Source: an uncultured Oscillospiraceae bacterium
GTDB lineage: Bacteria > Bacillota > Clostridia > Oscillospirales > Oscillospiraceae
Length of the DNA stretch: 64,000 nucleotides
NCBI GenBank assembly: GCA_934655875.1
Contig: CAKUHB010000009.1
Location: forward strand, 1 to 64,000
Direction: 5' to 3'
A program made the translations under genes and the position numbers. Positions 10,841 through 38,869 of this stretch are shown piece after piece. The stretch's first letter is position 1. Every line of letters begins with the position of its first letter. The notes under the pieces are model-generated. The model searched no databases and was not told where the DNA came from. It worked only from the letters and a program-made list of their open reading frames with translations.

Positions 10841-10890
10841 TTTACACGCTCCTGCTCCACATTGGAATGGTTTTTGATGTGAAATCTGAG

Positions 10891-10906: not shown

Positions 10907-10916
10907 ATCTGATTTC

Positions 10917-10944: not shown

Positions 10945-11053
10945 TTCCTTTCCCGAATTTTCTCGGATTTTGGTTGTTTTAACAAAAATCGCGTAAAGCA
11001 ATTGTATATATTTCTTGTTTCGCGCTGCAATCTGATATTTTTTGTTTCAGCTA

Positions 11054-11083
11054 TTGCCTATTTGGGTGTTTCCTGTTATAATA
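11054..11083 (+). promoter_or_regulatory. Putative promoter of the GntR regulator gene (-35 TTGCCT, extended -10 TGtTATAAT)
   Basis: Read from the sequence: ttgcct at 11054-11059, 18-bp spacer, TATAAT at 11078-11083, about 30 nt before the ATG at 11112. Confidence 0.35.
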
Positions 11084-11111
11084 TATAAAATTAGTTTTAT
11101 GGTGGGTTGAT

Positions 11112-11759: not shown

Positions 11760-11798
11760 ATGCGTGCGCATTTCGTGCCAACTTGGAGCGCAGCTGCA

Positions 11799-11830
11799 AC
11801 CTCCGCATCGAAAGATGCGGAGGTTTTTTG
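11799..11830 (+). terminator. Rho-independent terminator after the gntR-family gene
   Basis: The hairpin acctccgcatc-gaaa-gatgcggaggt is followed by TTTTTT. Confidence 0.65.
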
Positions 11831-11944
11831 CATCTTCCCCCCTTTGACTGTATTATCTCCGCGGATGGTTTTTGTCAAAATAGCTATTTTTTCGGGGCGG
11901 AAATTTATGAAAATGACGATTTCTCTATTATATGTTTATCGGGC

Positions 11945-11973
11945 TTGCAATCAGAATACATTTGTATTACGAT
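11945..11973 (+). promoter_or_regulatory. Putative promoter of the RHH-TIR/RCC1 operon (-35 TTGCAA, 17-bp spacer, -10 TACGAT)
   Basis: This is the only reasonable sigma-A-like pair in the 11831-11996 region, followed by the RBS AAAGGAG at 11981-11987. Confidence 0.3.
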
Positions 11974-11996
11974 GGTAAATAAAGGAGTGATGCTGT

Positions 11997-12188
11997 TTGG
12001 TGGAACCGCGTTTGGAGATTCCGGCGAAGAAATACACCGGCGAATCCGCAGTGATTTCCATGCGATTGCCGCGGGATATGCTGCTGGAAATCGACACAAT
12101 CGCAGCCGATACGGGTCGGACAAGAAATGAAGTTTTAACACTCTGCATGGAGTTCGCATTGAACCATCTCGATAAGGAATCGAAATAA
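11997..12188 (+). CDS. Ribbon-helix-helix (CopG/Arc-like) DNA-binding protein, putative operon regulator
   Basis: 63 aa. The beta-strand ISMRLPRDML is followed by two helices (LEIDTIAADTGRTRNEVLTLCMEFAL). TTG or GTG start 10-13 nt after AAGGAG; the start codon is uncertain. Confidence 0.55.
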   Translation: MVEPRLEIPAKKYTGESAVISMRLPRDMLLEIDTIAADTGRTRNEVLTLCMEFALNHLDKESK

Positions 12189-12209
12189 GGCCGAAAGAGA
12201 GAGAACAGA

Positions 12210-15200
12210 ATGGCGATGATCAAGTGCAAGATGTGCGGCGGGGATTTAAACGTCGAAGAAAACAGCCAGATCGCAGTCTGCGAATACTGCGGGACGCAGC
12301 AGACCGTTCCGAAGCAGGATAACGAGAAGAAGCTGACGCTGTTTGCGCGTGCAAACCGGCTGCGCTTTGCCTGCGAATTTGATAAGGCGGCGGGCGTTTA
12401 TGAGTCCATCGTGGCGGAGTTCCCGGAGGAGGCGGAAGCCTATTGGGGGCTTGTGCTCTGCAAATACGGTATTGAATACGTTGACGATCCGGCGACGGGT
12501 AAAAAGGTTCCGACCTGCCACCGGTCGAGCTTTGACAGCGTTCTGGAGGACGCGAACTTTGAGCTGGTCATGGAATACGCCGACGTAGTCACGCGGAAGC
12601 TTTACCGCGAGGAAGCCAAGGCCATCGAGGAGCTGCGGCGCAGGATCATCGAGGTCTCCAGCCGTGAAGAGCCGTATGACATTTTCATCTGCTATAAAGA
12701 GACGGACGAAAACGGCCAGCGGACACTCGATTCCGTCCTGGCGCAGGATTTATATGACGCGCTGACGGAAAAGGGCTACCGGGTATTTTTCTCCCGCATT
12801 ACGCTGGAGGACAAGCTCGGGCAGGAATACGAGCCGTATATCTTCGCCGCGCTCAACTCCGCGCGCGTCATGCTGGCCGTCGGGACGGACTATGAGTATT
12901 TTAACGCCCCGTGGGTCAAGAACGAGTGGAGCCGGTATTTGCAGCGCATCGCCGCCGGGCAGAAGAAATCGCTCATCCCGTGCTATAAAAATATCGACGC
13001 CTACGACATGCCGAAGGAATTTGCAAAGCTGCAGGCACAGGATCTCGGCAAGGTCGGTGCAACGCAGGATCTACTGCGCGGGATCGACAAGCTGCTGGGG
13101 AAAACAAGCACTCCCGCGGTTCCGGTGCAGCCCGCTCCGATGCAGGCTGCTGCTGCGCCGAATGTTGATTCGCTTCTTCGCCGCGGCAATCTGTTTCTGG
13201 AGGACCGCGACTGGACGAACGCAAAAACCTACTTCGATAAGGTTCTGGATATCGTTCCGGAGTGCGGCGCGGCGTATCTGGGGAAATTTCTTGCTGCAAA
13301 GAAGGCAAAAACGGTCGCGTCGTTTGTCCGGCGCTATGTGGAAGACATTGCGGCCCATGCACCGGCGCGCACCCGGCAGGATGCCTGCAAGCCGGACGAG
13401 ACATTCATCGCTGCCTGTCTCAATAAGTATCAGGTGCCGGAATATCTGGACGCACGCGAAATCCGGTCTCTGCTGCGCTTCGATCTTACGTATCATGCCG
13501 GGCTTGCAGACTATTATCACGACTGCTTCCTGCGCGCGGCGCAGATGCTTGGCAGCGAAAAGGACTTTGTCCGTGCTGAAAAGTATGCTGACGCGGATGT
13601 GCAGACGCAATGCGAGCTGCTGCGCAGCAAAATCCTGAACGATCTTCATGCCCGGCAGCAGGCCGCGGAGCAGGAGGAAGCCGGCGAAAAGCAGCGCATC
13701 ACGGAAGCCTATCATACATTTTTAAAGGAAACCGAATCAACGCTCGCCGCACGGCAGAAGGAAGCGCTTGAAAAGAAGAAAGCGCATGACAAGCTCGCGG
13801 AACGGCTGCGGTTGGAACGGGAAAAGCACGAAAAAGCGGCAGCAATCGAGCGGGAAAAGCAGGAAAAGCTGAGAAAAATCGCCGAGCAGGAGGCAAAACA
13901 AAAGGCCGCAAAGGCCCGGAAGCTCACGATCATCGGCGGCACTGCGGCAGCTGTCATCCTCGCAGCCGTGTTGATCATTACAAAGGTCATGATTCCGTCG
14001 CAGAAATATGCCAACGCCGCAGCGCTGCTGGATGCCGGAAACTATGATGACGCCATTTCAGCCTTTGCCGCATTGGGCGAGTATAAGGATTCTGCTGCCA
14101 TGTGCAGCAGCGCCGCGCACGCAAAAGCCTATGCGGAAGCGGAAACACTGCTGGCCGCCGGAGATTATAAGGGCGCGAGCGCCGCATTCGCTGCATTGCA
14201 GGATTATAAGGACGCGGCAAGCCGCGCAGATGCCGCAAGAAGCCAGCAGCTTGAAGCGGAAAACGCACAGGCCTATGCAAATGCGGAAGCACTGCTGGAT
14301 GCCGGAAACTATGCTGCCGCTGCCAAGGCGTTCCAAGCACTCGGCGACTACAAGGACGCGGCAGAGCGTGCGCAGGACTGCCCGTACATAGAAGCCGAGC
14401 AGCTTCTGGCGCAGGGAAAAACCGCAGAAGCCTCCATTGCGTTTGGAAGAATTGCCGGATATAAGGATGCGCTGGAGCGGAGCTTTGCGCTGAGAGCTTC
14501 CAGCGATCCTACAATTATTGCGAAGGACGATCATATCGTTGCGCTGAAAGAGGACGGTACTGTAGTCGCCATCGGCAATAACGAGTATGGGCAATGCGAT
14601 GTTGCCGACTGGACGAATCTTGTGGCAATCGATGCAGGATTCCTCTATACGGTCGGCCTGAAAGCGGATGGGACTGTGCTTGCTGTGGGCTATAACGATG
14701 ATGGCCGATGCAATGTTTCCGATTGGACGGACATCACAGCGATCCGCGCCGGCAGCTATCACACGGTCGGCCTGAAAACAAATGGAACCGTCGTTGCTGT
14801 AGGAGACAACGACTTGGGTCAATGCGATGTTGCCGACTGGACAGATATTACTGCCATCAGTGCCAGAGAGCATCACACGGTCGGTCTCAAGGCAGATGGC
14901 ACGGTAGTCGCCGTGGGCTATAACAGGTTTGGCCAATGCGATGTTTCCGGCTGGACGGATATCGTGGCGATCAGCACGGGGTATAATCACACGGTCGGCC
15001 TGAAAGCAGACGGAACGGTGGTCGCCGCAGGAAATAACGAGGATGGACAATGCGATGTATCTGATTGGACAGATATTGTAGCAATCAAGGCAGCATACAA
15101 ACACACAGTCGGCTTGAAATCGGACGGAACCGTGGTCGCTGTTGGTTTTAATGAATATGGTCAGTGTGACGTTTCAGATTGGACAGATATGATAGCAATT

Positions 15201-15434
15201 GATGCAGCAACTTATCACACGGTTGGTCTGAAAGCGGATGGAACCGTCGTTGCCACAGGAAATAATGGCGATGGGCAATGCAATGTCTCCGATTGGACAG
15301 ATATCGTTGCGGTGAACGCTGGTGGGTGGAATACCGTCGGCCTGAAAGCAGACGGTACCGTGGTCGTTGTTGGCGGTAACGTCGATGACAAGTGCAATGC
15401 TTCCGGCTGGACGGATATCAGGCTCCCCAACTGA
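12210..15434 (+). CDS. Zinc-ribbon / TIR-domain / TPR / single-TM / RCC1-like beta-propeller protein, paralog 1
   Basis: 1074 aa with these regions: an N-terminal CxxC..CxxC ribbon (KCKMCGG…CEYCG); a TIR-like region (DIFICYKETD…GYRVFFSRITLED…APWVKNEWSRYL) carrying the W-x-x-N-E catalytic-Glu motif; TPR-like helices; an E/K/Q-rich coiled coil; a TM helix (LTIIGGTAAAVILAAVLIITKVMIP) with positive residues on its N side; four ~40-aa repeats (A.ALL.AG.Y..A..AF.ALG.YKDA); and about eight RCC1-like blades (HTVGLKADGTVVAVG.N..GQCDVSDWTDI). It ends in IRLPN. Confidence 0.85.
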   Translation: MAMIKCKMCGGDLNVEENSQIAVCEYCGTQQTVPKQDNEKKLTLFARANRLRFACEFDKAAGVYESIVAEFPEEAEAYWGLVLCKYGIEYVDDPATGKKVPTCHRSSFDSVLEDANFELVMEYADVVTRKLYREEAKAIEELRRRIIEVSSREEPYDIFICYKETDENGQRTLDSVLAQDLYDALTEKGYRVFFSRITLEDKLGQEYEPYIFAALNSARVMLAVGTDYEYFNAPWVKNEWSRYLQRIAAGQKKSLIPCYKNIDAYDMPKEFAKLQAQDLGKVGATQDLLRGIDKLLGKTSTPAVPVQPAPMQAAAAPNVDSLLRRGNLFLEDRDWTNAKTYFDKVLDIVPECGAAYLGKFLAAKKAKTVASFVRRYVEDIAAHAPARTRQDACKPDETFIAACLNKYQVPEYLDAREIRSLLRFDLTYHAGLADYYHDCFLRAAQMLGSEKDFVRAEKYADADVQTQCELLRSKILNDLHARQQAAEQEEAGEKQRITEAYHTFLKETESTLAARQKEALEKKKAHDKLAERLRLEREKHEKAAAIEREKQEKLRKIAEQEAKQKAAKARKLTIIGGTAAAVILAAVLIITKVMIPSQKYANAAALLDAGNYDDAISAFAALGEYKDSAAMCSSAAHAKAYAEAETLLAAGDYKGASAAFAALQDYKDAASRADAARSQQLEAENAQAYANAEALLDAGNYAAAAKAFQALGDYKDAAERAQDCPYIEAEQLLAQGKTAEASIAFGRIAGYKDALERSFALRASSDPTIIAKDDHIVALKEDGTVVAIGNNEYGQCDVADWTNLVAIDAGFLYTVGLKADGTVLAVGYNDDGRCNVSDWTDITAIRAGSYHTVGLKTNGTVVAVGDNDLGQCDVADWTDITAISAREHHTVGLKADGTVVAVGYNRFGQCDVSGWTDIVAISTGYNHTVGLKADGTVVAAGNNEDGQCDVSDWTDIVAIKAAYKHTVGLKSDGTVVAVGFNEYGQCDVSDWTDMIAIDAATYHTVGLKADGTVVATGNNGDGQCNVSDWTDIVAVNAGGWNTVGLKADGTVVVVGGNVDDKCNASGWTDIRLPN

Positions 15435-15455
15435 CGAAGAAAGAAGGACGAGAAG

Positions 15456-18400
15456 ATGGCAATTATTAAATGTAAGATGTGCGGCGGGGATATTGAGATC
15501 TCTGCGGACAAGACGTTTGGGACGTGCGAATACTGCGGCAGCACGATGACGCTGCCCAAAGTGGACGACGAGCAGCGGGCGGCGGCGTTTAACCGCGGCA
15601 ATCACTTTAGGCGCAGCGGCGAGTTTGACAAGGCGCTGGCCGTGTATGAGCGAATCGTTGCCGAGGACGACAACGACGCCGAAGCGCACTGGTGCTGCGC
15701 GCTGTGCCGGTTCGGCATTGAATATGTGGAGGATCCGGCGACGTATGAATGGCTGCCGACGTGCCACCGCGCGAGCTTCGACAGCTTCTTGGAGGACGTG
15801 GACTATCTGGCTGCGGTCGCGCATTCCGACGGCATCACCCGCCGCCAGTACCAGAAGGACGCAGCGAAAATCGCCGAGGTGCAGCGCGGGATTCTCGCCA
15901 CGTCGCAGAACGAGCAGCCGTTCGACGTCTTCCTCTGCTACAAGGAGACCGGCGAGGACGGCCAGCGCACGCGCGACAGCCTGATGGCGCAGGAGGTCTA
16001 TTACGAACTGACCGAGCAGGGCTACCGCGTATTCTTCGCGCGCATCACGCTGGAAGATAAAGCGGGCGCGGAATATGAACCGTATATCTTTGCGGCGCTG
16101 AACTCCGCGAAGGTCATGGTCGTGATCGGCACGAAGCCGGAGCATTTTAACGCCGTCTGGGTCAAGAACGAATGGAGCCGCTTCCTGTCCATGATGAAAA
16201 AGGATCGGAGCAAGCTGCTCCTGCCGTGCTACCGGGACATGGATCCGTATGACCTGCCGGAAGCACTGTCGGTGCTGCAAAGCTATGACATGAGCAAGAT
16301 CGGCTTCATGCAGGATCTGATCCGCGGCGTCAAAAAGGTGCTCGACGCGGGCAAACCGCAGGAGGCTGCGAAAGAAACGGTCAAGGAGACCGTCGTGGTA
16401 CATAACGAGGGCGGCAGCAACGTGCAGGCCCTGCTCAAGCGCGGCAACATGGCGCTGGAGGACGGCGAATGGAGCAAGGCAGACGAGTTCTTTGAGCAGG
16501 TACTCAATCAGGACGCGGAGTGCGGCGCGGCGTATCTGGGGAAGTTTTTGAGCAGCAGAAAAGCAAAAAGCGTGCAGGCGTATTTGCAGAGCTGTTGCAA
16601 AAGAATAGCAAGCAACGCGCCGACCGCACAAAAGAGCAGCGCCTGTGAGGAAGACAGCGCGTTTATCGATGCCTGCGTGAAAAAGTATCAGGTGCCGGAC
16701 TATTACACCCCGGAGGACATTCACAAGGCGCTTACCCATGACCGGCTCTACTGCGCGGATCGCGCGGCGTATTTCCGCGAAGCGCAGAAGGAGTTCAATC
16801 AAGCACTGAGCGCCGACCGGAACTTTGTCCGCGCGGAAAAATTCGCCGACAGCGAAACAAAAGCGCAGTGCGGCACACTGCGCAGCGAGACCATGACTCT
16901 CCTGCGTCAGCAGGAGCAGCAGGCAGAGCAGGAAGCGGCTGCGGAAAAGCAGCGCGTTACCGAGGCCTATCACGCGTTCTTGCGCGAGACTGAGCCAAAG
17001 CTGGCCGAGAAACAGAAGCAAGGTCTTGCGAAGCAGGAAGAGGATCAAAAACGCAAGGAGGAATTTGAACGCCTGCGCGCGGAACAGAAAAAGCGTGCAG
17101 AGGAAGCAGAGAAACTCGCCGCACAGGAAGCAGCGCTAAAGGCTGCAAAGGCAGCAAAGGCGAAAAAGCTTACGCTTATCTGTGCTGCGGTGGCTGCTGC
17201 TGTCATTGCGGTGGTGTTGATCGTCACTCAAGTCATCATCCCATCTGCAAACTATTCCAAGGCTGAGAAGCTGCTGACTGCTGGCGATTATGACAGCGCA
17301 ATCACGGCATTCGCAGCTCTAGGCAATTACAAGGACGCAGCGGAGAAGATTACGCAGGCAAAAGAGCAGAAAGAAAACGAGCGTCTTGCCAAAGAAGCAG
17401 CTGAGGAGGAAGCCAGAAACGCGCAGGCATATGCCGATGCAGAAGCGCTGCTGGCAAGCGGGGATTACGACGGTGCTATCGCTGCTTTTACAGATCTGGG
17501 CGAGTATCAGGATGCTGCCGACCGGGTAAAGGCCATAGAAGCACAGAAAGCCGAGGAAAAAGCCAAAAAGGTGGAAGCGAAAAATGCGCAGGCATATCAG
17601 GAAGCGGTTTCTCTGCTGGAAAGCGGTAATTATTCAAAAGCGTCTGACGCATTTGCTAAACTTGGCAGCTACAAAGATGCGGCTATTCGGCGGAAAGAGT
17701 GCCAGTATCAAATGGCCGACCAGCTTCAAAATGATGGCGATACTGCTGCCGCTGCGGTAACGTTTGGGAAAGCCTGTGGATTCAACGACGCAAAAGAGCG
17801 TAGTCTGGCACTCTGGAATGTCATTGCCAAAAGAGATGTTATTGCGGCAAGCTGGGGATACACCGTTGGAGTGAAAGCAGATGGGACAGTTGTTGCAACC
17901 GGTGAAAATGATGACGGGCAATGCAATGTATCCAAATGGAAAGATATTATCGCCGTAGCAGCTGGATACGGGCACACGGTCGGCTTGAAGGCAGATGGGA
18001 CCGTGGTCGCTACCGGAAATAATGATGATGGTCAATGCAACGTGTCCGGTTGGAGCAACATTGTCGCAGTTGCAGCAGGATCCAGCCACACAGTTGGTCT
18101 GAAAATTGACGGAACTGTTGTTACCGCTGGCAGCACCATATGCGGTGAATCTAATTGGAGCGATATTATTTCTATAGCAGCCAACACCATTGTGACAGTT
18201 GGTCTGAAAACAGACGGGACAGTAGTTGACAAACCTTCTTGGTATAGCATTACCGCAGTGGCAGCCGGCGGCGTACACACAGTTGGGCTTAAAATGGACG
18301 GAACAGTTATTGCCACTGGCAGCAACGACCATCGGCAATGCAACGTATCTGACTGGAATAATATTATCGCGGTGGCAGCAGGCACCGACCACACTGTTGC

Positions 18401-18608
18401 AGTGAAATCAAATGGCACTGTTGTTGCCGCCGGTGAGAACGAAGATGGTCAGTGCAATGTATCTGGTTGGAGTAGTATCATTGCCGTGGCAGCAGGGTTC
18501 GACCACACTGTTGGCTTGAAGTCAGACGGAACTGTCGTTGCGGCCGGTGATAATTATTACGGTCAATGCAACGTTTCCAACTGGAAGAACATCAAGCTCC
18601 CCAATTGA
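15456..18608 (+). CDS. Zinc-ribbon / TIR / TPR / TM / RCC1-like protein, paralog 2
   Basis: 1050 aa with the same architecture. TIR motifs FDVFLCYKETGEDGQRT…VWVKNEWSRFL. TM helix LTLICAAVAAAVIAVVLIVTQVII. The RCC1 blades run to the C-terminus, which ends NIKLPN. The 22-bp junction with paralog 1 (gaaagaaggacgagaagATGGCAATTAT) is near-identical to the next junction. Confidence 0.85.
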   Translation: MAIIKCKMCGGDIEISADKTFGTCEYCGSTMTLPKVDDEQRAAAFNRGNHFRRSGEFDKALAVYERIVAEDDNDAEAHWCCALCRFGIEYVEDPATYEWLPTCHRASFDSFLEDVDYLAAVAHSDGITRRQYQKDAAKIAEVQRGILATSQNEQPFDVFLCYKETGEDGQRTRDSLMAQEVYYELTEQGYRVFFARITLEDKAGAEYEPYIFAALNSAKVMVVIGTKPEHFNAVWVKNEWSRFLSMMKKDRSKLLLPCYRDMDPYDLPEALSVLQSYDMSKIGFMQDLIRGVKKVLDAGKPQEAAKETVKETVVVHNEGGSNVQALLKRGNMALEDGEWSKADEFFEQVLNQDAECGAAYLGKFLSSRKAKSVQAYLQSCCKRIASNAPTAQKSSACEEDSAFIDACVKKYQVPDYYTPEDIHKALTHDRLYCADRAAYFREAQKEFNQALSADRNFVRAEKFADSETKAQCGTLRSETMTLLRQQEQQAEQEAAAEKQRVTEAYHAFLRETEPKLAEKQKQGLAKQEEDQKRKEEFERLRAEQKKRAEEAEKLAAQEAALKAAKAAKAKKLTLICAAVAAAVIAVVLIVTQVIIPSANYSKAEKLLTAGDYDSAITAFAALGNYKDAAEKITQAKEQKENERLAKEAAEEEARNAQAYADAEALLASGDYDGAIAAFTDLGEYQDAADRVKAIEAQKAEEKAKKVEAKNAQAYQEAVSLLESGNYSKASDAFAKLGSYKDAAIRRKECQYQMADQLQNDGDTAAAAVTFGKACGFNDAKERSLALWNVIAKRDVIAASWGYTVGVKADGTVVATGENDDGQCNVSKWKDIIAVAAGYGHTVGLKADGTVVATGNNDDGQCNVSGWSNIVAVAAGSSHTVGLKIDGTVVTAGSTICGESNWSDIISIAANTIVTVGLKTDGTVVDKPSWYSITAVAAGGVHTVGLKMDGTVIATGSNDHRQCNVSDWNNIIAVAAGTDHTVAVKSNGTVVAAGENEDGQCNVSGWSSIIAVAAGFDHTVGLKSDGTVVAAGDNYYGQCNVSNWKNIKLPN

Positions 18609-18629
18609 TAGAGAAAGAAGGACGAGAAG

Positions 18630-21458
18630 ATGGCAATTATGAAATGTAAGATGTGCGGCGGGGATATTGAGATCTCGGCGGACAAGACCTTCGGAACGTG
18701 TGAATACTGCGGCAGCACGATGACGCTGCCGAAGACGGATGACGACCAGCGGCTGAGCTTATTCAACCGCGGCACGCATCTGCGGCGCAACGGTGAATTT
18801 GACAAGGCTGCGGCGATCTATGAGCGGCTGATCGGTGAGAACGACGCGGACGCGGAAGCGCACTGGAACCTGCTGCTCTGCCGGTACGGCATCGAGTATG
18901 TGCAGGATCCGGCCTCCGGCGAGCGTATCCCGACCTGCCACCGCGCGAGCTTTGACAGCATTCTGAACGATGTGGACTATCAGGCCGCGCTGCAATACTC
19001 CGACGGCGTGGCGCGGAGCCTGTATGAAAAGGAAGCGCAGCGCATTGCTGCGCTGCAAAGGGACATTCTGGCGATCTCGCAGAAGGAATCGCCGTTCGAC
19101 GTGTTCATCTGCTACAAAGAATCCGACGAGAACGGCAGGCGCACGAAGGATTCCGCGCTGGCGCAGGATATTTACTACCAGCTCACCGACGCGGGCTATA
19201 AGGTCTTCTTCGCGCGCATCACGCTGGAGGATAAGCTCGGACAGGAATACGAGCCGTATATCTTTGCCGCCCTGCACTCGGCAAAGGTCATGGTTGTGGT
19301 CGGCACGAAGCCGGAATACCTGAACGCTGTCTGGGTCAAAAACGAGTGGAGCCGGTATCTCGCGCTCATGCGCACCGACCGCAGCCGCCTGCTCATCCCC
19401 TGCTACCGCGATATGGATCCGTATGATATGCCGGAAGAGCTCAGCATGCTGCAAAGTCAGGACATGGGGCGGATCGGGTTCATTCAGGATCTCATCCGCG
19501 GCGTCAGAAAAGTCGTAGACGCGGCAAAGCCGCAGCCGGAGCAGCCGTCCGCCGCGGCGGACGCCGGGACGAAGACCGCGCCGCTCCTGCGCCGCGGCAC
19601 GCTCTTTCTGGAGGACGGCGACTGGGCCAACGCAAACCAGTATTTTGAAAAGGTGCTGGACGCCGCGCCGGAGTGCGCGGAAGCGTATCTCGGAAAATTC
19701 CTCGCGCAGAATCACGCAAAGTCCGCCGCGGACTATGCAAACGCCCGTCTTGCGGACATTGTCAGGCACGCGCCGTCCATCAAAAACACGGACGCGTGCG
19801 CGGCGGACGGTGCATTTATCTCCGCCTGCACAGAAAAATATCAGGTCGACGGATATCTGAGCAGTCAGGAGATCACCAGAATGCTTTCCGCCTTTGACCG
19901 GCAGTATTGCAGTCAGGCGGCCTATTACCGCACCGCGGCGGAGACGGCAAGAAGCGAACTGGACACAGACCGCAATCTGACCCGCGCCCGGCAGTTCGGC
20001 TCGGACAAGACCCGCGCCCAATGCCAGAGCATCTGCGACAGCCTGTTCGGCCCGCTGGCGGAAAAGCTCCGCCAGTGCGAAGAGGAAGACGCCCGCCAGG
20101 CGCGCAGCATCCGCGAGGACTACGCCGCCTTTCTGAAAAAGGCGGAGGAAAAAGTCACCGCACGCTCCGAGCAGCTGCGGCAGAAAGAAGCACAGGCACA
20201 GCTCGAGCAGGAGCGGCAGCAGCGCGAAGCGGAGGAAGCGGAGCGCCAGCGCCGTCTGGAGGAGCTTCACCAGCTGGCAAAGGCCCGCCGGAAACAGACG
20301 GCCAAAAAGATCGCCAGGGGCGCGGTCGTTGCCGGGCTGCTGCTGGCCGCGGCTCTCAGCTTTTTGAAGTTTGCGAACCGGAAGTATGATCAGGCGGTGG
20401 CGCTCGCCGCGGAGGGCAGCTATGCGCAGGCCGCGGAAGCGTTCGACGAGCTGAAAACCTACAGAGACAGCAAGGAGCAGTTCGCGGAGAACATGCGTCT
20501 GGCCGGAGAAGCGTATCTGGCGTCGGGCGAGACGGCGCGCGCCGCCATGTGCTACGCAAAGATCGGCGATCCGGAAAGCATGGAAAAAAGCTATGCGCTG
20601 TGGGACACGGTCGCGGTGCGGAAGACGATCTCCGTCGGATATAACTACACCGCCGCGTTGAAAGACGACGGCACGGTCGTATTTACCGACAGGCACGCGT
20701 TTGACTCCTCGCCCGCGGGCTGGCACGACATCATCGCGATCGCCTGCGGCGACGACCATCTGCTCGGCCTGCGGGCAGACGGCAGCGTCTGCGCAGCCGG
20801 ACGGAATACAAAAGGCGAATGCGACGTTTCCGACTGGAAAAACATCGTGGCGATTGCCGCAGGGATGGACTACTCGGTCGGCCTGCGGGCGGACGGAACG
20901 GTCGTCACGGCTGGACGGAAGGACAATGGCAACCACAAGACCGGCGACTGGACAGATATCGTAGCGATCGACGCCAAGAGCCTACAGGCCGTCGCCCTGA
21001 AAGCGGACGGAACCGTGATCATGACCGGGGATACGGATAGTGAGAAGACGCTGGTGGAAAGCTGGACGGATATCAAGGCGATCTCGGCCGGATGGTTCCA
21101 CACGGTCGGGATCAAGCAGGACGGAACAGTCGTTGCGGCGGGACATGACACCGATGGTGCCTGCGACGTCGGCAGCTGGAGCAATATCTGCGCAGCGGTC
21201 GGCGGCGGAAGCACAAAGTTTGACTACACGATCGGTCTGCGGACGGACGGCACGCTGGTCGTGACGCGTCCGGAAAGCGTGGAAGCCGGCTCCGCACGTG
21301 ACATTGCCGGCTGGAGCAGCATTGTCGCAGTTGCGACAGGCACAGATACGGAAAAGCTCACCCTTGGTCTGCGGTCGGACGGCACGGTCGTCGCCGTGGG
21401 CGATACGGACGGCATTGATCTGAGCGAATGGACAAATATCAAGCTCCCAAACAGATAA
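18630..21458 (+). CDS. Zinc-ribbon / TIR / TPR / TM / divergent RCC1-like protein, paralog 3
   Basis: 942 aa. The N-terminal ~300 aa are about 80-90% identical to paralog 2 at the start. TIR motifs FDVFICYKESDENGRRT…VWVKNEWSRYL. TM helix VVAGLLLAAALSFLKFA. There are fewer YKDA repeats, and the propeller blades are degenerate (several lack the GQC motif). It ends NIKLPNR. Confidence 0.85.
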   Translation: MAIMKCKMCGGDIEISADKTFGTCEYCGSTMTLPKTDDDQRLSLFNRGTHLRRNGEFDKAAAIYERLIGENDADAEAHWNLLLCRYGIEYVQDPASGERIPTCHRASFDSILNDVDYQAALQYSDGVARSLYEKEAQRIAALQRDILAISQKESPFDVFICYKESDENGRRTKDSALAQDIYYQLTDAGYKVFFARITLEDKLGQEYEPYIFAALHSAKVMVVVGTKPEYLNAVWVKNEWSRYLALMRTDRSRLLIPCYRDMDPYDMPEELSMLQSQDMGRIGFIQDLIRGVRKVVDAAKPQPEQPSAAADAGTKTAPLLRRGTLFLEDGDWANANQYFEKVLDAAPECAEAYLGKFLAQNHAKSAADYANARLADIVRHAPSIKNTDACAADGAFISACTEKYQVDGYLSSQEITRMLSAFDRQYCSQAAYYRTAAETARSELDTDRNLTRARQFGSDKTRAQCQSICDSLFGPLAEKLRQCEEEDARQARSIREDYAAFLKKAEEKVTARSEQLRQKEAQAQLEQERQQREAEEAERQRRLEELHQLAKARRKQTAKKIARGAVVAGLLLAAALSFLKFANRKYDQAVALAAEGSYAQAAEAFDELKTYRDSKEQFAENMRLAGEAYLASGETARAAMCYAKIGDPESMEKSYALWDTVAVRKTISVGYNYTAALKDDGTVVFTDRHAFDSSPAGWHDIIAIACGDDHLLGLRADGSVCAAGRNTKGECDVSDWKNIVAIAAGMDYSVGLRADGTVVTAGRKDNGNHKTGDWTDIVAIDAKSLQAVALKADGTVIMTGDTDSEKTLVESWTDIKAISAGWFHTVGIKQDGTVVAAGHDTDGACDVGSWSNICAAVGGGSTKFDYTIGLRTDGTLVVTRPESVEAGSARDIAGWSSIVAVATGTDTEKLTLGLRSDGTVVAVGDTDGIDLSEWTNIKLPNR

Positions 21459-21473: not shown

Positions 21474-23333
21474 ATGAGCAAATTTGTAATTGAATGCCCC
21501 AAATGCGGGAAATACGCCGAAGCCAGCACCGGCCTGTTTGCAAAACGGAGGATCCCCTGCACGTGCGGGCACGCCATCGACGTGCGTACGGAACGGCTCG
21601 CGACCCGCGAATGCCCGCACTGCGGCAATACCGTCCTCTATGACCAGTCCAAGGGCGAAAAGGCGCTCTGCCCCGTCTGCCATACGCCGGTCAACACGAC
21701 GGCCCTTCAGCTCAAGACCGTGGAATTTTCCTGCGCGCAGTGCGGCATCCAGCTGCACGCGAGCAAGGCGGATACGACCTGCATCTGCCCCGTCTGCGGC
21801 TGCGAGAACGACGTGGAGCAGCGCGTCACGACCGACCGGATCAAAAAGGACGGTCTTGCCAGCATCATCAAATACGAGGGCGACAACGAGACCTTCGTCT
21901 GGAAGCACCCGATCGAGGACTTCAACTTCGGCTCGCAGCTGATCGTCCATGAGAGTCAGGAAGCGATCTTCTTCCGCGACGGGCAGGCACTCGACCTCTT
22001 CGGCGCGGGCCGCTACACGCTGCAAACGCAGCAGCTGCCGCTGCTGGAGAAGATCTACAAGCTCCCGACCGACACCGAGGGCACGTTCCATTCCGAGGTC
22101 TATTTCATCAACCTCGCCACCCAGATGGGCGTCAAATGGGGCACGGACAGCAAAGTCCGGATGTTTGACCCTGCGTCCCACCTGCCGATCGAGATCGGCG
22201 CGTCGGGCGAATTTAATATCCGCGTGACCGACTCGCGCAAGCTTCTTTTGAAGGTCGTCGGCACGACGGGCGGGCTTGGGCAGGAGCAGCTGCTGGGCAT
22301 CGGGAACGGCAAGGGCTTCTTCCGCTCGATGGTCATGACGCAGGTGAAAAGCTACCTTGCGCAGACGATCAAGGAAAACGCCATCGACATTCTGGAGATC
22401 GACGAGCACCTCATGGCGCTCTCCGGCGCGCTGCGCGAGCGGATCAACGCCGCGCTGGATGAATACGGCCTGACGATGCCGGAATTTTACGTCAGCCGTA
22501 TCGTAACGCCGGACGACGACCCCAATTTCCGCCGCATGAAGGAGCAGCACGCCGAGCAGTATCTGCTCGTCCGGCAGGAGAACATCCGCAAAGCCGAAGC
22601 CGAAGCCGCGGCAGGCCGCAAGGCGGTCGAAGCGCAGACGGCTGCCCACCTGAAGATCATCGGCGCGCAGGGCGACGCGGAAGCACTCAAGATCCAGAAG
22701 CAGGCCGAAGCCGAAGCCTATCGCATGCAGGCCGAAGCCGAAGCCGCCGAAATGCACATGAAGGGCTACAGCTATCAGCAGGAGTCCGCCCGGCAGGTCG
22801 GTCTGGAAGCGATGAAAAATGGCCTTGGCGGCGGCGCGAATGCTGCGGGCGCGCTGGGCGATCTCGCGGGGCTTGGTGTAAGTCTTGGCGCAATGGGCAG
22901 TGTCATCGGCATGACGAAGGATGCGCTGAACCCCATGACGCAGGACGCCGCGCAGATGGGCGCGGCCGTCGGTGCAGCCGGCACAGGCGGCTGGGACTGC
23001 CCGGCGTGCGGACACAAAAACATCACCACGAACTTCTGCCCCGACTGCGGCGGCAAAAAGCCCGAAGCAAAAACCGGCTGGGACTGCGCACAGTGCGGCA
23101 CAAAGAACATCCAGAGCAGATTCTGCCCGAACTGCGGCGCAAAGAAGCCGGAGGAGCCGAAGGGCTGGATCTGCCCGGACTGCGGCACGAAAGATATCAC
23201 GACGAACTTCTGCCCCAACTGCGGCACGAAGAAGCCGGAGGCGCCAAAGGGCTGGATCTGCCCGGACTGCGGCACGAAGGATATCATGACGAACTTCTGC
23301 CCGAACTGCGGACGGAAGAAGGAGGAGACATAA
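21474..23333 (+). CDS. SPFH/band-7 (YdjI-like) protein with three N-terminal and four C-terminal zinc ribbons
   Basis: 619 aa. N-terminal CPKCG…CTCGH, CPHCGN…CPVCH and CAQCG…CPVCGC ribbons precede a central SPFH-like domain (…FVWKHPIEDFNFGSQLIVHESQEAIFFRDGQALD…) and an A/E/Q-rich coiled coil. Four tandem 29-aa repeats GW(D/I)CP.CG.K.I...FCP.CG.KKPE, about 87 bp each, make up the 22985-23330 DNA region. Confidence 0.8.
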   Translation: MSKFVIECPKCGKYAEASTGLFAKRRIPCTCGHAIDVRTERLATRECPHCGNTVLYDQSKGEKALCPVCHTPVNTTALQLKTVEFSCAQCGIQLHASKADTTCICPVCGCENDVEQRVTTDRIKKDGLASIIKYEGDNETFVWKHPIEDFNFGSQLIVHESQEAIFFRDGQALDLFGAGRYTLQTQQLPLLEKIYKLPTDTEGTFHSEVYFINLATQMGVKWGTDSKVRMFDPASHLPIEIGASGEFNIRVTDSRKLLLKVVGTTGGLGQEQLLGIGNGKGFFRSMVMTQVKSYLAQTIKENAIDILEIDEHLMALSGALRERINAALDEYGLTMPEFYVSRIVTPDDDPNFRRMKEQHAEQYLLVRQENIRKAEAEAAAGRKAVEAQTAAHLKIIGAQGDAEALKIQKQAEAEAYRMQAEAEAAEMHMKGYSYQQESARQVGLEAMKNGLGGGANAAGALGDLAGLGVSLGAMGSVIGMTKDALNPMTQDAAQMGAAVGAAGTGGWDCPACGHKNITTNFCPDCGGKKPEAKTGWDCAQCGTKNIQSRFCPNCGAKKPEEPKGWICPDCGTKDITTNFCPNCGTKKPEAPKGWICPDCGTKDIMTNFCPNCGRKKEET

Positions 23334-25010
23334 ATGGCGGCAAAGCTGGAATGTGAAATCTGCGGCGGCAAGCTGATCGGCAAGCCCGGCGGCATCTTCG
23401 AGTGCGATTCCTGCGGCATGGAGTATTCCACCGAATGGGCCAAGGCCAAAATTCAGGAAATCAAAGGCACGGTCAAGGTCGAGGGCACGGTCGAGGTCAC
23501 CGGCAAGGTACAGGTCGAAGGCGGCACAGTGCAGGTCGAGGGCGCGGTGACAAAAGAGAGTCTTCTCAAGCGCGCGGAGATGTGCTGCGCGGAGAAGGAC
23601 TGGGGCAAAGCAAAGGCGCTGATTGAACAGGTTCTGAATATCGACCCGGAGTGCGGCGAAGCGTATCTGACCTCGGTGATGGTAGAGCGGGTCATGCAGT
23701 CAAAAGAAGACCTCCACGCATACTGCACCAACGCCATCCTTCCTCTGCCGCAAGGGAAAAACATGGAGCGCGCACAGCAGTTCCTGCCGGAGCTTTTTGC
23801 ACAATGGAAAGAAGAAAAAGAGCGCAACTACGCAGCGTATCTTAAGAAATACGAGGAAAGCGGCGCAGCGCAGCTGCGTGCGCGCTATGCAAAGACAGAT
23901 GGACTGCTGGTCTGTGGGTATCCCGGCCTGCTCGGGATTCGAACAGACGGAACTGTTCTGGTATCGGCAACAGAAACGCGGGAGCCGGACGCCGCCGCGA
24001 TCCGGCAGTGGGATGAGATCACAACAATTGCTTGCGGCGTGAATCATACAGTTGGCCTTCGGGCAGACGGCACAGTCGTCGCCGTTGGAAAAAATGGTAG
24101 CGGCCAGTGCAATGTTGAGAAATGGCGAAACATCACAGCAATTGCTTGCGGCGGGAATCATACAGTTGGCCTTCGGGCAGACGGTACGGTCGTTGCTGTC
24201 GGAGCAAATGAAAATGGACAGTGCAATGTCAGGGACTGGCGGGACGTCACAGCAATTGCTTGCGGCGATAGCCATACGGCTGGTCTTCGGGCAGACGGTA
24301 CGGTCGTTGCAGCCGGATGCAATGAAGAGCAGTGCAATGCCATCAAGGGCTGGCGGGATATTACCGCAATCGCCTGTAGCGGATCCCATACCGTCGGTCT
24401 CCGGGCAGACGGCACAGCGGCTGCGACAGACTATCCGAATTGTGAAAACTGGCGCGACGTTGTCTCGCTTGTGTGCAATGGCGAGTATGGTCTGCGGAAG
24501 AACGGGACGCTTGCGCCGAGCTGGGGCAATCTGTGCTGCGGCTGGTCGGACATTATCGCCGTTTCGGGTTATGGCAGTCATATCTCCGCGCTGCGCAGCG
24601 ACGGAACGGTTATATGCGCTGGCGGCGGAGAAAGCCAAAAGTGGACGGATATCGTCAGCATTTGCAGCATCCTCGATAAGGTGTATGGCATACGGAAAGA
24701 CGGTACCGTCGTGGCGGCTGGCGAATCTCATAGAGATGTTTCCGGCTGGCGCTTATTTAACAGTATTGATACCTTGGAACAGGAGCGCACGAAAGGACTG
24801 GCACGTGCCCGGGCCGAACACCTTGCAAAGGAAAAGGCCAAAGCTGATCGCATCGCACAGAAAAAAGCAGAGCTTCAGGCTGAACGGGACGAACTGCAAG
24901 CAGAGCTTTCGCAGCTCAAGGGGCTGTTTTCCGGCAAGCGCCGAAAAGAAATTGAACTTCTGCTGACCGTCAACCGGTATGAGCTTCAGGAATTGGAGGA
25001 ACAGGCATGA
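23334..25010 (+). CDS. Soluble zinc-ribbon / TPR / RCC1-like repeat protein (no TIR, no TM)
   Basis: 558 aa with an N-terminal CEICGG…CDSCG ribbon, a (K/T)VEGTV repeat, one TPR-like unit, at least 7 RCC1-like blades (NHTVGLRADGTVVAVG.N..GQCNV..W.DITAIACG) and a C-terminal coiled coil. The start overlaps the preceding stop (TAAATGG). Confidence 0.8.
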   Translation: MAAKLECEICGGKLIGKPGGIFECDSCGMEYSTEWAKAKIQEIKGTVKVEGTVEVTGKVQVEGGTVQVEGAVTKESLLKRAEMCCAEKDWGKAKALIEQVLNIDPECGEAYLTSVMVERVMQSKEDLHAYCTNAILPLPQGKNMERAQQFLPELFAQWKEEKERNYAAYLKKYEESGAAQLRARYAKTDGLLVCGYPGLLGIRTDGTVLVSATETREPDAAAIRQWDEITTIACGVNHTVGLRADGTVVAVGKNGSGQCNVEKWRNITAIACGGNHTVGLRADGTVVAVGANENGQCNVRDWRDVTAIACGDSHTAGLRADGTVVAAGCNEEQCNAIKGWRDITAIACSGSHTVGLRADGTAAATDYPNCENWRDVVSLVCNGEYGLRKNGTLAPSWGNLCCGWSDIIAVSGYGSHISALRSDGTVICAGGGESQKWTDIVSICSILDKVYGIRKDGTVVAAGESHRDVSGWRLFNSIDTLEQERTKGLARARAEHLAKEKAKADRIAQKKAELQAERDELQAELSQLKGLFSGKRRKEIELLLTVNRYELQELEEQA

Positions 25011-25702
25011 AACAGGACAAAGGAAAAACCCAGACGCTTCTGATCCTCGCCATTGTGCTGGCGGCGTATCTGGTGCTGGCATTCGTGATCCCATTTGCAA
25101 AGACCGGCGTGTTCTGGCTGGCGCTGGTGTTTACGCTGGCGGCGTTCGGCTTGCAGCTGTATGTGATGAAGCTGTCGTTTACAAAGGGCAAGGACGCGCG
25201 AAGCAAGTTCTACGGCTTCCCGATTGCCCGCGTCGGCGCGGTGCACCTGATCGTGCAGCTCGTGCTGAGCTTCCTGTTCATGGCGCTCGCCGCATACTGC
25301 CCGGCATGGGTCGCCGCCGTCATCTTTGTGGTGCTGCTGGCCGCCGCTGCCGTCGGCGTTGTTGCGGCAGACGCAATGCGCGACGAGGTCGAGCGGCAGG
25401 ACGTGCAGCTCAAAACGGACGTGGCCGCCATGCGCACGCTGCAATCGCGCGCGGCAGCGCTGGTTGCCCGCTGCGAGGACGCGGCACTGCGGGCTGACGC
25501 GCAGAAGCTTTCGGACGCGTTCCGGTACAGCGATCCCGTGACAAATCCCGCAACGAGCGCCGCAGAGCACGAGCTTTCCGCCTGCATGGACGAGCTGGAG
25601 CGCGCCGCGCTTGACGGCGATGTTGAAAACGCAAAGACGCTGATCCGGCGCACCGCCGCCCAGCTCTCAGAGCGCAACCGCCTGTGCAAGCTGAATAAAT
25701 AA
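25007..25702 (+). CDS. Four-TM membrane protein with a C-terminal cytoplasmic helical domain (last gene of the operon)
   Basis: 231 aa with four hydrophobic helices in the first 130 aa followed by an A/R/D-rich helical tail. ATGA overlap with the upstream gene. Confidence 0.7.
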   Translation: MKQDKGKTQTLLILAIVLAAYLVLAFVIPFAKTGVFWLALVFTLAAFGLQLYVMKLSFTKGKDARSKFYGFPIARVGAVHLIVQLVLSFLFMALAAYCPAWVAAVIFVVLLAAAAVGVVAADAMRDEVERQDVQLKTDVAAMRTLQSRAAALVARCEDAALRADAQKLSDAFRYSDPVTNPATSAAEHELSACMDELERAALDGDVENAKTLIRRTAAQLSERNRLCKLNK

Positions 25703-25746: not shown

Positions 25747-25790
25747 GGCGGGCCTGATATTCCGGGAATATCAGGCCCGCTTTGTGCTTC
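25747..25790 (+). terminator. Rho-independent terminator of the TIR/RCC1 operon
   Basis: Perfect hairpin gcgggcctgatatt-ccggg-aatatcaggcccgc followed by TTTGTGCTTCTT. Confidence 0.75.
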
Positions 25791-38860: not shown

Positions 38861-38869
38861 ATGGATTCT

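Follow-up and report, generated by a model that had tools for sequence, protein, structure and literature searches.

Organization of the operon

The window (the whole 64,000-nucleotide stretch of DNA analysed here) carries on its forward strand an operon of tightly packed or overlapping genes, which is bounded by a promoter-like site and a strong terminator. The probable operon start is a TTTGCA-18-TATTAT site (11827..11856), recognized by consensus match and lying just past the GntR terminator (11798..11825), and the end is marked by a strong intrinsic-terminator-like hairpin with a 16-bp stem (25747..25781), predicted from sequence. The operon leader has no match in Rfam. The 63-aa ribbon-helix-helix (RHH)-like protein encoded at the head of the operon (11997..12188; 21 nt upstream of the first TIR gene), whose gene is also called in independent assemblies, matches Pfam RHH_1 below threshold (16.7-18.3 bits; cut-off 20.5) and is probably the operon repressor. 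Its homologs, detected by tblastn in 100/164 loci (46/72 species loci), usually stop 4-50 nt ahead of the first module gene.

Next come three paralogous genes of shared architecture coding for TIR proteins of 1074 aa (12210..15434), 1050 aa (15456..18608) and 942 aa (18630..21458), followed by the SPFH gene (21474..23333, ATG start), the product of which is a soluble protein of 619 aa with three N-terminal and four C-terminal zinc ribbons. Its stop codon is abutted by the start of a gene for a 558-aa soluble paralog (23334..25010) that combines a zinc ribbon, short beta-rich repeats, TPR, RCC1 repeats and a coiled coil, and is devoid of both a TIR domain and a TM segment. This gene is optional, being found between the SPFH and 4-TM genes in only some loci (e.g., L003, L011, L020, L109 and L113). 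The last gene (25007..25702), with a start overlapping the upstream stop by 4 nt, codes for a 231-aa membrane protein with 4 TM helices and a ~110-aa cytoplasmic helical domain. An S-layer (VWA-SLH) gene adjoins the operon in the window, but it lies past the terminator, and its status as a neighbour is not conserved. The first-pass annotation had placed a zinc ribbon on every other large protein of the operon, which is correct for the RCC1 protein and each of the three TIR paralogs but fails for the 231-aa membrane protein; it had passed over the small RHH gene and the 4-TM partner, the fact that the TIR proteins are single-pass, and the wide distribution and mobility of the module.

The SPFH protein

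The 619-aa protein is a member of the SPFH/Band 7 superfamily of the Band_7_1 type: its SPFH domain (21918..22517; aa 149-348) is recovered by the Pfam models PF13421 (Band_7_1; E=1.7e-36, 126 bits, cut-off 24) and PF01145 (Band_7; E=1.1e-5, 26 bits, cut-off 23.6), bearing out the SPFH core claimed earlier from the bare translation. In Foldseek searches of the PDB, the top 38 matches to its model were all stomatin, HflK/C, prohibitin, flotillin or QmcA, with probabilities of 0.92-1.00 (1.00 or 0.99 for the top 36) and a TMt of up to 0.72 against isolated SPFH domains, the query being a low-confidence model (pLDDT 56). When PDB sequences were searched with a profile, no SPFH chain came up, and the only matches were spurious Cys-rich ones to hepsin. 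The full-length AF2 model, computed on a 16-sequence alignment, has a pLDDT of 56 and a pTM of 0.29; we dropped it as a guide to the packing of the ribbons and used it for the SPFH fold only.

The SPFH domain is followed by long Ala/Glu-rich helices (22521..22817; aa 350-448), predicted by AF2 secondary structure as H350-396, H401-429 and H434-448, which have no Pfam match and are the likely counterpart of the SPFH coiled-coil wall. Beyond them lies a conserved Gly-rich hydrophobic segment (...GDLAGLGVSLGAMGSVIGMT...; 22821..22916; aa 450-481) of glycine-zipper-like aspect, with G462, L467, G468, L471, G472 and T481 unchanged throughout a 21-species alignment. The hydropathy of this segment falls just under the TM threshold: the highest 19-residue Kyte-Doolittle mean in the protein is 1.49, at aa 460-478, versus ~1.6, in agreement with the earlier observation that the protein has no TM segment. 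The N-terminal membrane anchor (TM helix or hairpin) of the SPFH superfamily is likewise absent by hydropathy, and its place is taken by a triple zinc-ribbon module (21474..21812; aa 1-113).

Zinc ribbons at both ends

By inspection of the sequence, the N-terminal module comprises three Cys4 sites (C8/C11/C29/C31, C47/C50/C66/C69 and C87/C90/C105/C108), for which the Pfam zinc-ribbon matches are only sub-threshold and the AF2 model has beta-hairpins with a pLDDT of 56-78. At the other end, four tandem 29-aa units of the pattern WxCxxCG-x9-CxxCG-KKPE begin at aa 506, 535, 564 and 593 (22989..23330). This C-terminal tail matches Pfam DZR (2.1e-17; 63.5 bits, cut-off 27.3) and Zn_ribbon_3 (1.8e-16), so the units are zinc ribbons by profile, with zinc binding predicted. 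A RanBP2/NZF-type finger, considered for the WxCxxC...C units, was dismissed for want of any such Pfam match even at E<=1. All 12 Cys of the N-terminal sites and the Cys of C-terminal units 1-3 are invariant in the alignment of 21 species, where the columns of unit 4 are filled in only some of the species; as judged from this alignment, such invariance far exceeds chance expectation. The seven ribbons counted in the first-pass annotation are thus all accounted for, three and four at the respective ends.

At the DNA level, the C-terminal ribbons form an 87-bp array, which TRF delimits to 22989..23321 (3.8 copies, 77% matches, score 330), close to the interval of 22985..23330 first given for it. 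The description of its repeats as "perfect" was wrong: the units are 63-85% identical in amino acids and 67-86% in nucleotides, with only units 3 and 4 being close, and the accompanying wording "near-identical" comes nearer. The array is not an assembly artefact, a refutation that the first-pass annotation had itself raised, because a gene of the same four-unit layout recurs in hundreds of independent assemblies. Close relatives have four or five units, with a genuine fifth in 649-aa forms (P0032, P0107, P0116 and P0391) that reads as the product of a recent tandem duplication. The 650-aa variants, also considered as carriers of a fifth ribbon, were set aside, as the extra length of L148 is a 30-aa insertion in an SPFH loop and only the 649-aa forms are five-unit.

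Across species, 79/80 have five CxxC motifs and one CxC at the N-terminus, and the number of C-terminal ribbons ranges from 2 to 6; tandem C-terminal ribbons are accordingly the norm of the family and nothing special to the gene in the window. The N-terminal triple ribbon is not indispensable, since two loci (L100 and L142) retain the module with an SPFH gene that is devoid of it; they are the only informative cases, as a metagenome scan seeded with the N-ribbon-less P0123 recovered mostly forms with the N-terminal ribbons. The number of C-terminal ribbons is uncorrelated with that of TIR genes (Spearman -0.03, n=39), and we therefore rejected the notion of one C-terminal ribbon per TIR client.

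Single-pass TIR receptors

The first TIR paralog displays, in order, a zinc ribbon, TPR, a TIR_2 domain, TPR/coiled coil, one TM segment, TPR-like repeats and RCC1 repeats (Pfam TIR_2 1.6e-12; RCC1_2 2.4e-55), and the TIR_2 domain is detected in all three paralogs at E=1e-10 to 1e-12. The first harbors a WVKNEW motif that includes E239 and aligns on the WPARE motif of the Brucella TcpB TIR; the corresponding motif, W[VI][KR]NE[W], is kept in 207/207 complete TIR ORFs, and from published TIR enzymology we regard its Glu as the putative catalytic residue. The TM segments of the window paralogs (aa 572-590, 572-590 and 561-579, respectively) have a K/R-rich N-flank, which implies an N-in orientation, and a TM segment follows the TIR domain in 142/207 complete TIR ORFs. 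The variable C-terminal part, consisting of RCC1, DUF6273 or other domains, probably faces outward. An extracellular sensor role for RCC1 is not general, because the 558-aa paralog and 8 TIR ORFs also bear RCC1 propellers but have no TM segment. Individual loci have 1-5 TIR genes, the C-termini of which differ between strains with an identical flanking GntR gene.

A conserved and mobile module

Comparison of gene neighborhoods revealed a conserved module made up of the 63-aa RHH-like gene, 1-5 zinc ribbon-TPR-TIR-TM receptors, the SPFH gene and an unannotated 4-TM gene of ~231 aa. The 4-TM gene lies downstream of the SPFH gene in 136/137 eligible loci, and 74/74 eligible loci have one or more zinc ribbon-TPR-TIR genes; no further family neighbors the SPFH homologs in more than 7/80 species-level loci. 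The model of the 231-aa protein is all-helical, with 4 TM helices and a helical bundle; it has no Pfam match and no family assignment, although 13/35 members of its family show recurrent sub-threshold matches to Phage_holin_3_6 (best E 9e-4).

At least 365 species representatives have the SPFH-TIR module, including many abundant Clostridia of the human and animal gut, and its SPFH homologs are restricted to gut and rumen anaerobes, with 58-87% identity of the SPFH protein across families. In some lineages, the module is carried by integrative mobilizable elements and is found beside relaxase and serine-recombinase genes, and one identical module block is inserted at two distinct chromosomal sites. 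Some loci feature optional in-operon genes coding for SIR2_2 (in only 5/80 species loci) or DUF2971. In the species of the window itself, the module occupies a fixed chromosomal site amid housekeeping genes in 8/8 contexts examined, among which no empty-site allele was seen beside an identical GntR gene. No SPFH homolog was found in the viral contigs scanned. The known defence-system models of PADLOC and NCBIfam gave no system-level match: PADLOC returned only a weak match of the window operon to a candidate family, PDC-S66, and the NCBIfam model of the Thoeris type III ThcB4 scored 21 bits against a cut-off of 220. In our literature search, no paper connected SPFH/Band 7 to TIR, and none described the module.

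Relationship to known SPFH and TIR systems

The closest parallel to the SPFH protein is B. subtilis YdjI/SamI of the pspA-ydjGHI (=pspA-samGHI) operon, a likeness that we draw from the shared PF13421 family and from the published description of its architecture. In YdjI/SamI, a soluble SPFH domain leads via a low-complexity linker to one or more C-terminal zinc fingers, and the protein needs separately encoded membrane proteins (PMC8581546; bioRxiv 10.64898/2026.02.06.704340), its subgroup likewise having no membrane anchor (PMC8581546). It depends on YdjG, with a zinc ribbon and TM, and YdjH (PMC8581546; 10.1101/2021.02.15.431232), and SamI has been proposed to restrain signalling by its own membrane partners. 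The window protein has in common with it the anchorless SPFH domain, low-complexity linker, C-terminal zinc fingers and membrane-protein neighbours, and YdjG starts with a zinc ribbon, as do the TIR partners in the window. A C-terminal ribbon also enters the name of COG4260, [quoted passage not shown]. The differences lie in the partners, which here, in place of YdjG/YdjH, are TIR receptors plus a 4-TM protein that is all-helical and unrelated, with no linked PspA; in the invariant N-terminal triple ribbon and the 2-6 C-terminal ribbons of the window clade; and in the mobility and copy variation of its module. The YdjI-type assignment of the first-pass annotation thus stands for the Band_7_1 family and the SPFH/linker/zinc-finger layout, but not for the link to PspA: no PspA-type domain occurs in the window operon proteins, nor is PspA among the conserved neighbours in 80 species loci.

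With the cage-forming SPFH complexes (HflK/C-FtsH, QmcA-YbbJ/NfeD, stomatin, flotillin and prohibitin) the protein shares the SPFH fold and the long helical extension, and with SPFH-NfeD operons the pairing of an SPFH gene with that of a small membrane protein. Unlike these, it has no N-terminal TM or hairpin and displays zinc ribbons at both ends, and its proposed clients are TIR receptors, not a protease. A neighbour of the NfeD family with a C-terminal OB-fold is absent from the operon, the adjacent 231-aa protein being all-alpha in its model.

The TIR components recall Thoeris and other bacterial TIR defences in the TIR_2 domain with its conserved putative catalytic Glu, the multi-copy TIR genes, the mobile variable context and the occasional in-operon SIR2-family gene. 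In contrast to Thoeris, the window TIR proteins span the membrane in a single pass, carry large variable C-termini and have SPFH and 4-TM proteins as obligate partners, and the window operon has no ThsA-type effector (SIR2-SLOG or Macro-TM). By functional analogy only, they also resemble animal Toll-like receptors, being single-pass proteins with a repeat-rich variable non-cytoplasmic domain, a cytoplasmic TIR and multiple paralogs; however, the orientation is inverted, with the TIR at the N-terminus and the variable domain at the C-terminus, RCC1 or DUF6273 repeats take the place of LRR, and the TIR retains the enzyme-type Glu, homology being implied for the TIR domain only. Toll-like receptor signalling is organised in flotillin-marked membrane domains.

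A proposed scaffold for TIR receptors and its alternatives

From what is shown above on domain content, predicted topology, the linkage and conservation of the genes, variation in copy number and mobility, we propose that the SPFH protein is a YdjI-like cytoplasmic scaffold of a self-contained mobile module that organises TIR receptors at the membrane, and we infer a role in conflict or immunity; we put this at about even odds (probability ~0.5). As other SPFH proteins do, the protein would oligomerise, using the SPFH domain together with the long helices, to form a ring or dome on the inner membrane face, a geometry borrowed from other SPFH families because the full-length AF2 model is poor. 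Since it has no anchor of its own, it would be docked by the 4-TM protein in the way that YdjG/YdjH dock YdjI. The N-terminal triple ribbon, in the position of the TM anchor of other SPFH proteins, may lie at the membrane-proximal rim as a docking surface for membrane partners, and the copy-variable C-terminal ribbons might cluster at the crown, where they could provide multivalent, low-specificity contacts with the TIR receptors via their zinc ribbon-TPR heads; as ribbon number is untied to TIR gene number, a simple one-ribbon-one-client arrangement is disfavored. Such an assembly would confine or restrain the receptors until a signal at their variable C-terminal domains, or a membrane perturbation, leads to TIR clustering and potentially to NAD+ cleavage, with NAD+ depletion or signal production as the outcome. 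The setting would most likely be defence or inter-microbial conflict. We count in favor of a conflict system the TIR copy number of 1-5, the variable C-termini, the relaxase/recombinase neighbours, SIR2_2/DUF2971 and the RHH gene at the head of the operon; against the scaffold-immune reading, we count the failure to match any defence model or to find a homolog in viral contigs, the fixed housekeeping-flanked site in the window's species, and the conservation of the SPFH protein, which is unusually high for a defence gene.

The same parts could be read with the SPFH and 4-TM proteins as the business end: the TIR receptors would sense and signal, and TIR-derived nucleotides or NAD+ loss would trigger membrane permeabilisation or remodelling by the two proteins, comparable to the membrane effector of type II Thoeris. 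The 4-TM protein is indeed the tightest-linked partner, often with overlapping start and stop codons, and its holin-like matches, the glycine-zipper-like segment of the SPFH protein and the addition in some loci of SIR2_2, a classical NADase effector domain, all point this way. Yet neither protein has a recognisable domain for nucleotide sensing (SLOG, Macro, SAVED, CARF or STING), the holin-like matches are under every threshold and typical of TM-hairpin composition, and SPFH proteins are known as scaffolds and regulators rather than pore formers, which leaves an effector role unlikely, at perhaps one chance in a handful.

Two non-immune accounts appear more doubtful still. The receptors might read host, diet or neighbour ligands via RCC1/DUF6273, with the SPFH protein organising a membrane microdomain for them and, as part of ordinary physiology, the TIR serving as adaptor or second-messenger enzyme. 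The strong SPFH conservation across families, the housekeeping surroundings in the window's species and the restriction to gut and rumen anaerobes would suit such a role, as would the adjacent VWA-SLH gene, were it not beyond the terminator and inconstant beside the module; association with mobile elements, insertion at differing sites, receptor C-termini swapped at the strain level, the optional SIR2_2 and DUF2971 genes and the strictly retained putative catalytic Glu argue against it, and we consider it improbable. We give the least credence to a YdjI-like envelope-stress module, in which PspA (ESCRT-III) would be recruited by the SPFH protein to sites of membrane damage, with the zinc-ribbon proteins as the sensors of this pathway. 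It would explain the Band_7_1 family, the soluble-SPFH/low-complexity/zinc-finger layout common with YdjI/SamI and the membrane-protein partners, some with a YdjG-like N-terminal zinc ribbon; however, no PspA/IM30 domain is encoded in the operon and no further neighbour is conserved in the 80 species loci, the partners that are conserved comprise an unrelated 4-TM protein and TIR proteins bearing a putative catalytic Glu, and mobility and variable copy number set the module apart from a core stress regulon.

A stronger version of the scaffold proposal, which we advance only tentatively, is that the operon encodes an unrecognised membrane immune receptor complex, wherein paralogous single-pass TIR receptors with swappable, outward-facing sensors (RCC1, DUF6273) are held in a 4-TM-anchored cage or microdomain built from the zinc-ribbon-bearing, YdjI-like SPFH protein; binding of a ligand or damage to the membrane would then release or cluster the TIR domains and bring about NAD+ cleavage. 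Prokaryotes would thereby have, by analogy, their own form of raft-organised Toll-like receptor signalling, disseminated among gut Clostridia by mobile elements.

Significance

SPFH proteins are ubiquitous, but clients are known for only a minority of them. To our knowledge, YdjI/SamI is the only studied Band_7_1 member and is tied to PspA, and the known bacterial TIR systems are cytosolic. Here, the same type of scaffold is fixed to TIR receptors across the species representatives that have the module. The ribbons are in themselves ordinary, several at the C-terminus being usual for the family. If the proposal is true, it would define a client class for SPFH scaffolds, add a membrane-embedded TIR system to bacterial immunity and offer a tractable model of multivalent assembly by zinc-ribbon arrays, and the strain-level diversification of receptors at the locus would bear on phage-host dynamics in the gut.

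The SPFH Gene Sits in a Fixed Module with TIR Receptors

The neighborhood of the SPFH gene is the real finding at this locus, the interesting part being a fixed module composed of an RHH-like gene, one or more TIR receptor genes, the SPFH gene and a gene for a protein with four TM helices. When one genome was scanned for each species, a relative of the SPFH gene turned up in 365 species, the best 80 of which come from Oscillospiraceae, Lachnospiraceae, Ruminococcus, Acutalibacteraceae and kindred gut and rumen Clostridia, along with two MAGs labelled Chloroflexi. The gene always lies within the same module across 80 species-level loci and 80 metagenome contigs; the latter are mostly from one species group, which leaves these linkage counts phylogenetically non-independent and the species-level loci as the sounder sample. 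With ORFs called mechanically, the linkage is near-obligate: a gene for a ~230-aa membrane protein lies downstream in 136 of the 137 loci with enough downstream sequence, and at least one zinc ribbon-TPR-TIR gene (1–5 per locus) is present in all 74 loci where the sequence extends 3.5 kb or more to both sides of the SPFH gene. Clustering of the other flanking ORFs yielded no additional family in more than 7 of the 80 species loci, serine recombinases being the commonest. The Chloroflexi-labelled MAGs L033 (Flexilinea sp.) and L064 (uncultured Chloroflexi) have complete modules, with 67–68% identity to the clostridial proteins, reflecting either horizontal transfer or mis-binning. A full-text literature search, of incomplete coverage and hence compatible with an earlier description, found no paper tying SPFH/Band 7 to TIR proteins.

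The operon in the window spans the interval between a promoter-like sequence match (11827–11856, +) and a terminator with a 16-bp stem (25747–25781, +), and its genes overlap or are separated by at most 21 nt; the GntR gene upstream and the VWA-SLH gene downstream both lie outside it. The latter, right after the terminator (25978–29919, +), encodes a 1313-aa S-layer-type secreted protein with VWA, InlB-B-repeat and three SLH domains, and displays no conserved adjacency to the module in other species. An RHH/CopG-like 63-aa ORF (11997–12188, +) ends 21 nt before the first TIR gene; it gives sub-threshold matches to RHH_1/CopG-antitoxin-like families and is annotated as a gene in independent assemblies. 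Its homologs occur in 100 of 164 loci, a frequency underestimated by the single tblastn query, and mostly end 4–50 nt before the first module gene; the product is probably an autoregulator of the module. Elsewhere in the window, a 1569-aa ORF (38870–43579, −) features an internal signal-peptide-like start and a GC3 of 0.82 and yielded no Pfam match at 1e-5; a 1443-aa ORF on the opposite strand (38783–43114, GC3 0.61) looks like a shadow ORF.

An Anchor-Free Band_7_1 Protein with Zinc Ribbons at Both Ends

The SPFH gene (21474–23333, +) encodes a 619-aa protein that, by profile and architecture, belongs to the SPFH superfamily and, within it, to the Band_7_1 (YdjI/SamI-like) family. The core proposed in the first-pass annotation is recovered by Pfam Band_7_1 at aa 149–348 (E = 1.7e-36) and, more weakly, by Band_7, and the low-confidence AF2 model (pLDDT 56), in which aa 350–448 form long helices, retrieves from the PDB solely SPFH proteins, namely stomatin, HflK/C, prohibitin, flotillin and QmcA. 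The claimed absence of a TM segment also holds under simple hydropathy and the positive-inside rule, by which all TM and topology calls were made: the most hydrophobic 19-residue segment (KD 1.49, aa 460–478) coincides with a conserved Gly-rich stretch, ALGDLAGLGVSLGAMGSVI, in and around which G462, L467, G468, L471 and G472 are invariant.

Three N-terminal ribbons, as first proposed, precede the SPFH domain, with Cys4 sites at C8/C11/C29/C31, C47/C50/C66/C69 and C87/C90/C105/C108, and four C-terminal 29-aa units (GWxCxxCG-x9-CxxCG-KKPE) start at aa 506, 535, 564 and 593. The corresponding ~87-bp DNA array is likewise recovered by Tandem Repeats Finder (87 bp × 3.8 copies, 22989–23321, 77% matches). 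The repeats are not "perfect" as had been stated: the units are pairwise only 63–85% identical in protein and 67–86% in DNA, and close resemblance is confined to units 3 and 4. Nor are they an assembly artefact, since the gene recurs in hundreds of independent assemblies. In Pfam searches the C-terminal tail alone matches DZR (2.1e-17) and Zn_ribbon_3 (1.8e-16), both well over the cut-offs, and the N-terminal ribbons give sub-threshold zinc-ribbon matches only. As the twelve N-terminal cysteines and those of three C-terminal units are invariant in a 21-species alignment, the CxxC motifs at both ends appear to be selected metal sites rather than chance occurrences.

An exhaustive HMMER search gathered 4669 clusters of relatives (50% identity), many of which begin at query residue ~128 and thus lack N-terminal ribbons, yet carry two to four C-terminal ones, making multiple C-terminal ribbons a family trait. 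Zinc ribbons as such are therefore ordinary for this family, and the N-terminal triple ribbon emerges from these comparisons as a clade-specific addition. Within the clade the triple ribbon is invariant (five CxxC and one CxC in 79 of 80 species), whereas the C-terminal set varies in copy number, with two units in 3 species, three in 42, four in 20, five in 6 and six in 2. The fifth unit is genuine in some relatives ~87% identical to the window protein, and its near identity to the adjoining unit indicates a recent tandem duplication. In a sub-lineage of 650-aa variants (e.g., L148), a 30-aa insertion (GQTVSYTHTSERTEYSGQNGESVSQKETTS...) after G275, in a variable SPFH loop, explains length differences that mimic an additional ribbon.

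Partner Proteins

The three TIR paralogs in the window (1074, 1050 and 942 aa; 12210–15434, 15456–18608 and 18630–21458, all +) share an architecture of an N-terminal zinc ribbon, TPR, TIR_2, TPR/coiled coil, one TM helix (aa ~561–590), TPR-like repeats and RCC1 repeats. Because the residues preceding the TM helix are rich in K/R, the N-terminus is predicted to lie inside, which would place the ribbon and TIR domain in the cytoplasm and the RCC1 part outside. The motif W[VI][KR]NE[W] is kept in all 207 complete TIR ORFs of the loci, and in paralog 1 it aligns with WPARE in the TIR domain of Brucella TcpB/BtpA; from published TIR enzymology, we take motifs of this type to hold the catalytic Glu. 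A TM helix follows the TIR domain in 142 of the 207 ORFs, and the C-terminal domain varies, being RCC1 in some and DUF6273 or another domain in the rest.

A 558-aa paralog (23334–25010, +), found in some loci only, combines a zinc ribbon, TPR, RCC1 and coiled coil without TIR or TM. Its gene carries an 18-bp tandem repeat (23466–23548, +; 4.4 copies, 69% matches) encoding short beta-rich GTV-x-VEG repeats in the stretch that separates the zinc ribbon from the TPR segment; a similar motif is seen in the 337-aa zinc-ribbon protein of the related locus L163. The last gene of the operon (25007–25702, +) encodes the 231-aa protein, which has four TM helices; its cytoplasmic helical domain of ~110 aa contains the invariant motifs RDEVERQD, SDPV and ERNRLCKLNK, and the AF2 model of the protein reaches pLDDT 83. 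The protein matches no family in Pfam, NCBIfam or PADLOC, and its structural neighbors are uninformative.

Mobility and Variation

Two different chromosomal sites in one lineage carry an identical ~15.5-kb block (4016–19550 in both L163 and L164), which encodes in order RHH, TIR, DUF2971, SPFH, 4-TM and a zinc-ribbon protein, followed by two small genes, a MobA/MobL relaxase, ALP_N and a large serine recombinase; given the two insertion sites, this block is an integrative mobilizable element with the module as cargo. In another relative, relaxase, MobC and resolvase genes border the module. In the window's species it occupies a fixed site among housekeeping genes, where strains with an identical GntR neighbor carry differing TIR genes: the first paralog has 615 aa without RCC1 (L166, 9874–11721) or ~1074 aa with RCC1 (the window, 12210–15434, and others), and the third has 942 aa in one strain and 1008 aa in another. 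The difference in the first paralog indicates cassette-like exchange of receptor genes within the species.

A SIR2_2 gene occurs inside the operon in five species. These SIR2_2-like genes (306–343 aa) lie between the TIR and SPFH genes in L027, L029 and L078 and are also seen in L045 and L052; the L029 copy matched PF13289 (E = 3e-6), and PADLOC gave no match for the L029 and L078 copies. A ~300-aa DUF2971 gene, weakly similar to the PADLOC candidate family PDC-S31, directly adjoins module genes in several lineages (L016, L031, L038, L054, L153 and L163/L164). The viral contigs scanned held no homolog.

Proposed Role and Alternatives

The operon lacks a ThsA-type effector and matches no curated model, and is therefore not Thoeris; the known defense-system models likewise gave no match. 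Nor is the SPFH gene part of an SPFH-NfeD pair. The YdjI likeness first raised is well founded, in that the protein has exactly the YdjI/SamI layout, in which a low-complexity linker connects a soluble SPFH domain to one or more C-terminal zinc fingers; YdjG (a zinc ribbon plus a TM) and YdjH draw YdjI/SamI to the membrane, and YdjI/SamI then recruits PspA (PMC8581546; 10.1101/2021.02.15.431232; 10.64898/2026.02.06.704340). However, PspA and YdjG/H-type neighbors are absent here, which places the protein outside the PspA-YdjGHI system and makes a PspA-tethering stress role the least probable of the alternatives. A non-immune surface-signaling role, with which the predicted outward RCC1 part would be compatible, is also quite doubtful. 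That the SPFH/4-TM pair is itself the effector would accord with their linkage; we regard this option as unlikely.

We favor, at a probability of about 0.5, the composite reading of an SPFH scaffold for TIR receptors, docked by the 4-TM protein and serving in conflict or immunity. The variable receptors, mobile context, RHH gene and occasional SIR2 gene suggest such a conflict or immune role. To our knowledge, SPFH proteins all assemble into rings or cages apposed to the membrane, whose membrane rim holds the N-termini and whose crown holds the C-termini. Reasoning from this behavior, the SPFH protein would oligomerize, and the 4-TM protein would dock it in the way that YdjG/YdjH dock YdjI, with the triple ribbon as a docking domain in place of the usual TM anchor and the C-terminal ribbons making multivalent contacts with the zinc ribbon-TPR heads of the receptors. 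The simplest versions of such a scaffold are constrained by three observations: the number of C-terminal ribbons shows no relation to that of TIR genes, the SPFH genes of two modules lack N-terminal ribbons, and RCC1 domains are present on TM-less proteins too. Loss of SamI leaves its membrane partners signaling constitutively (10.64898/2026.02.06.704340), and this precedent suggests, by analogy, a restraining or organizing role for the SPFH protein. In these Clostridia, it may thus hold in check or arrange TIR receptors whose output would be TIR clustering and NAD+ cleavage.
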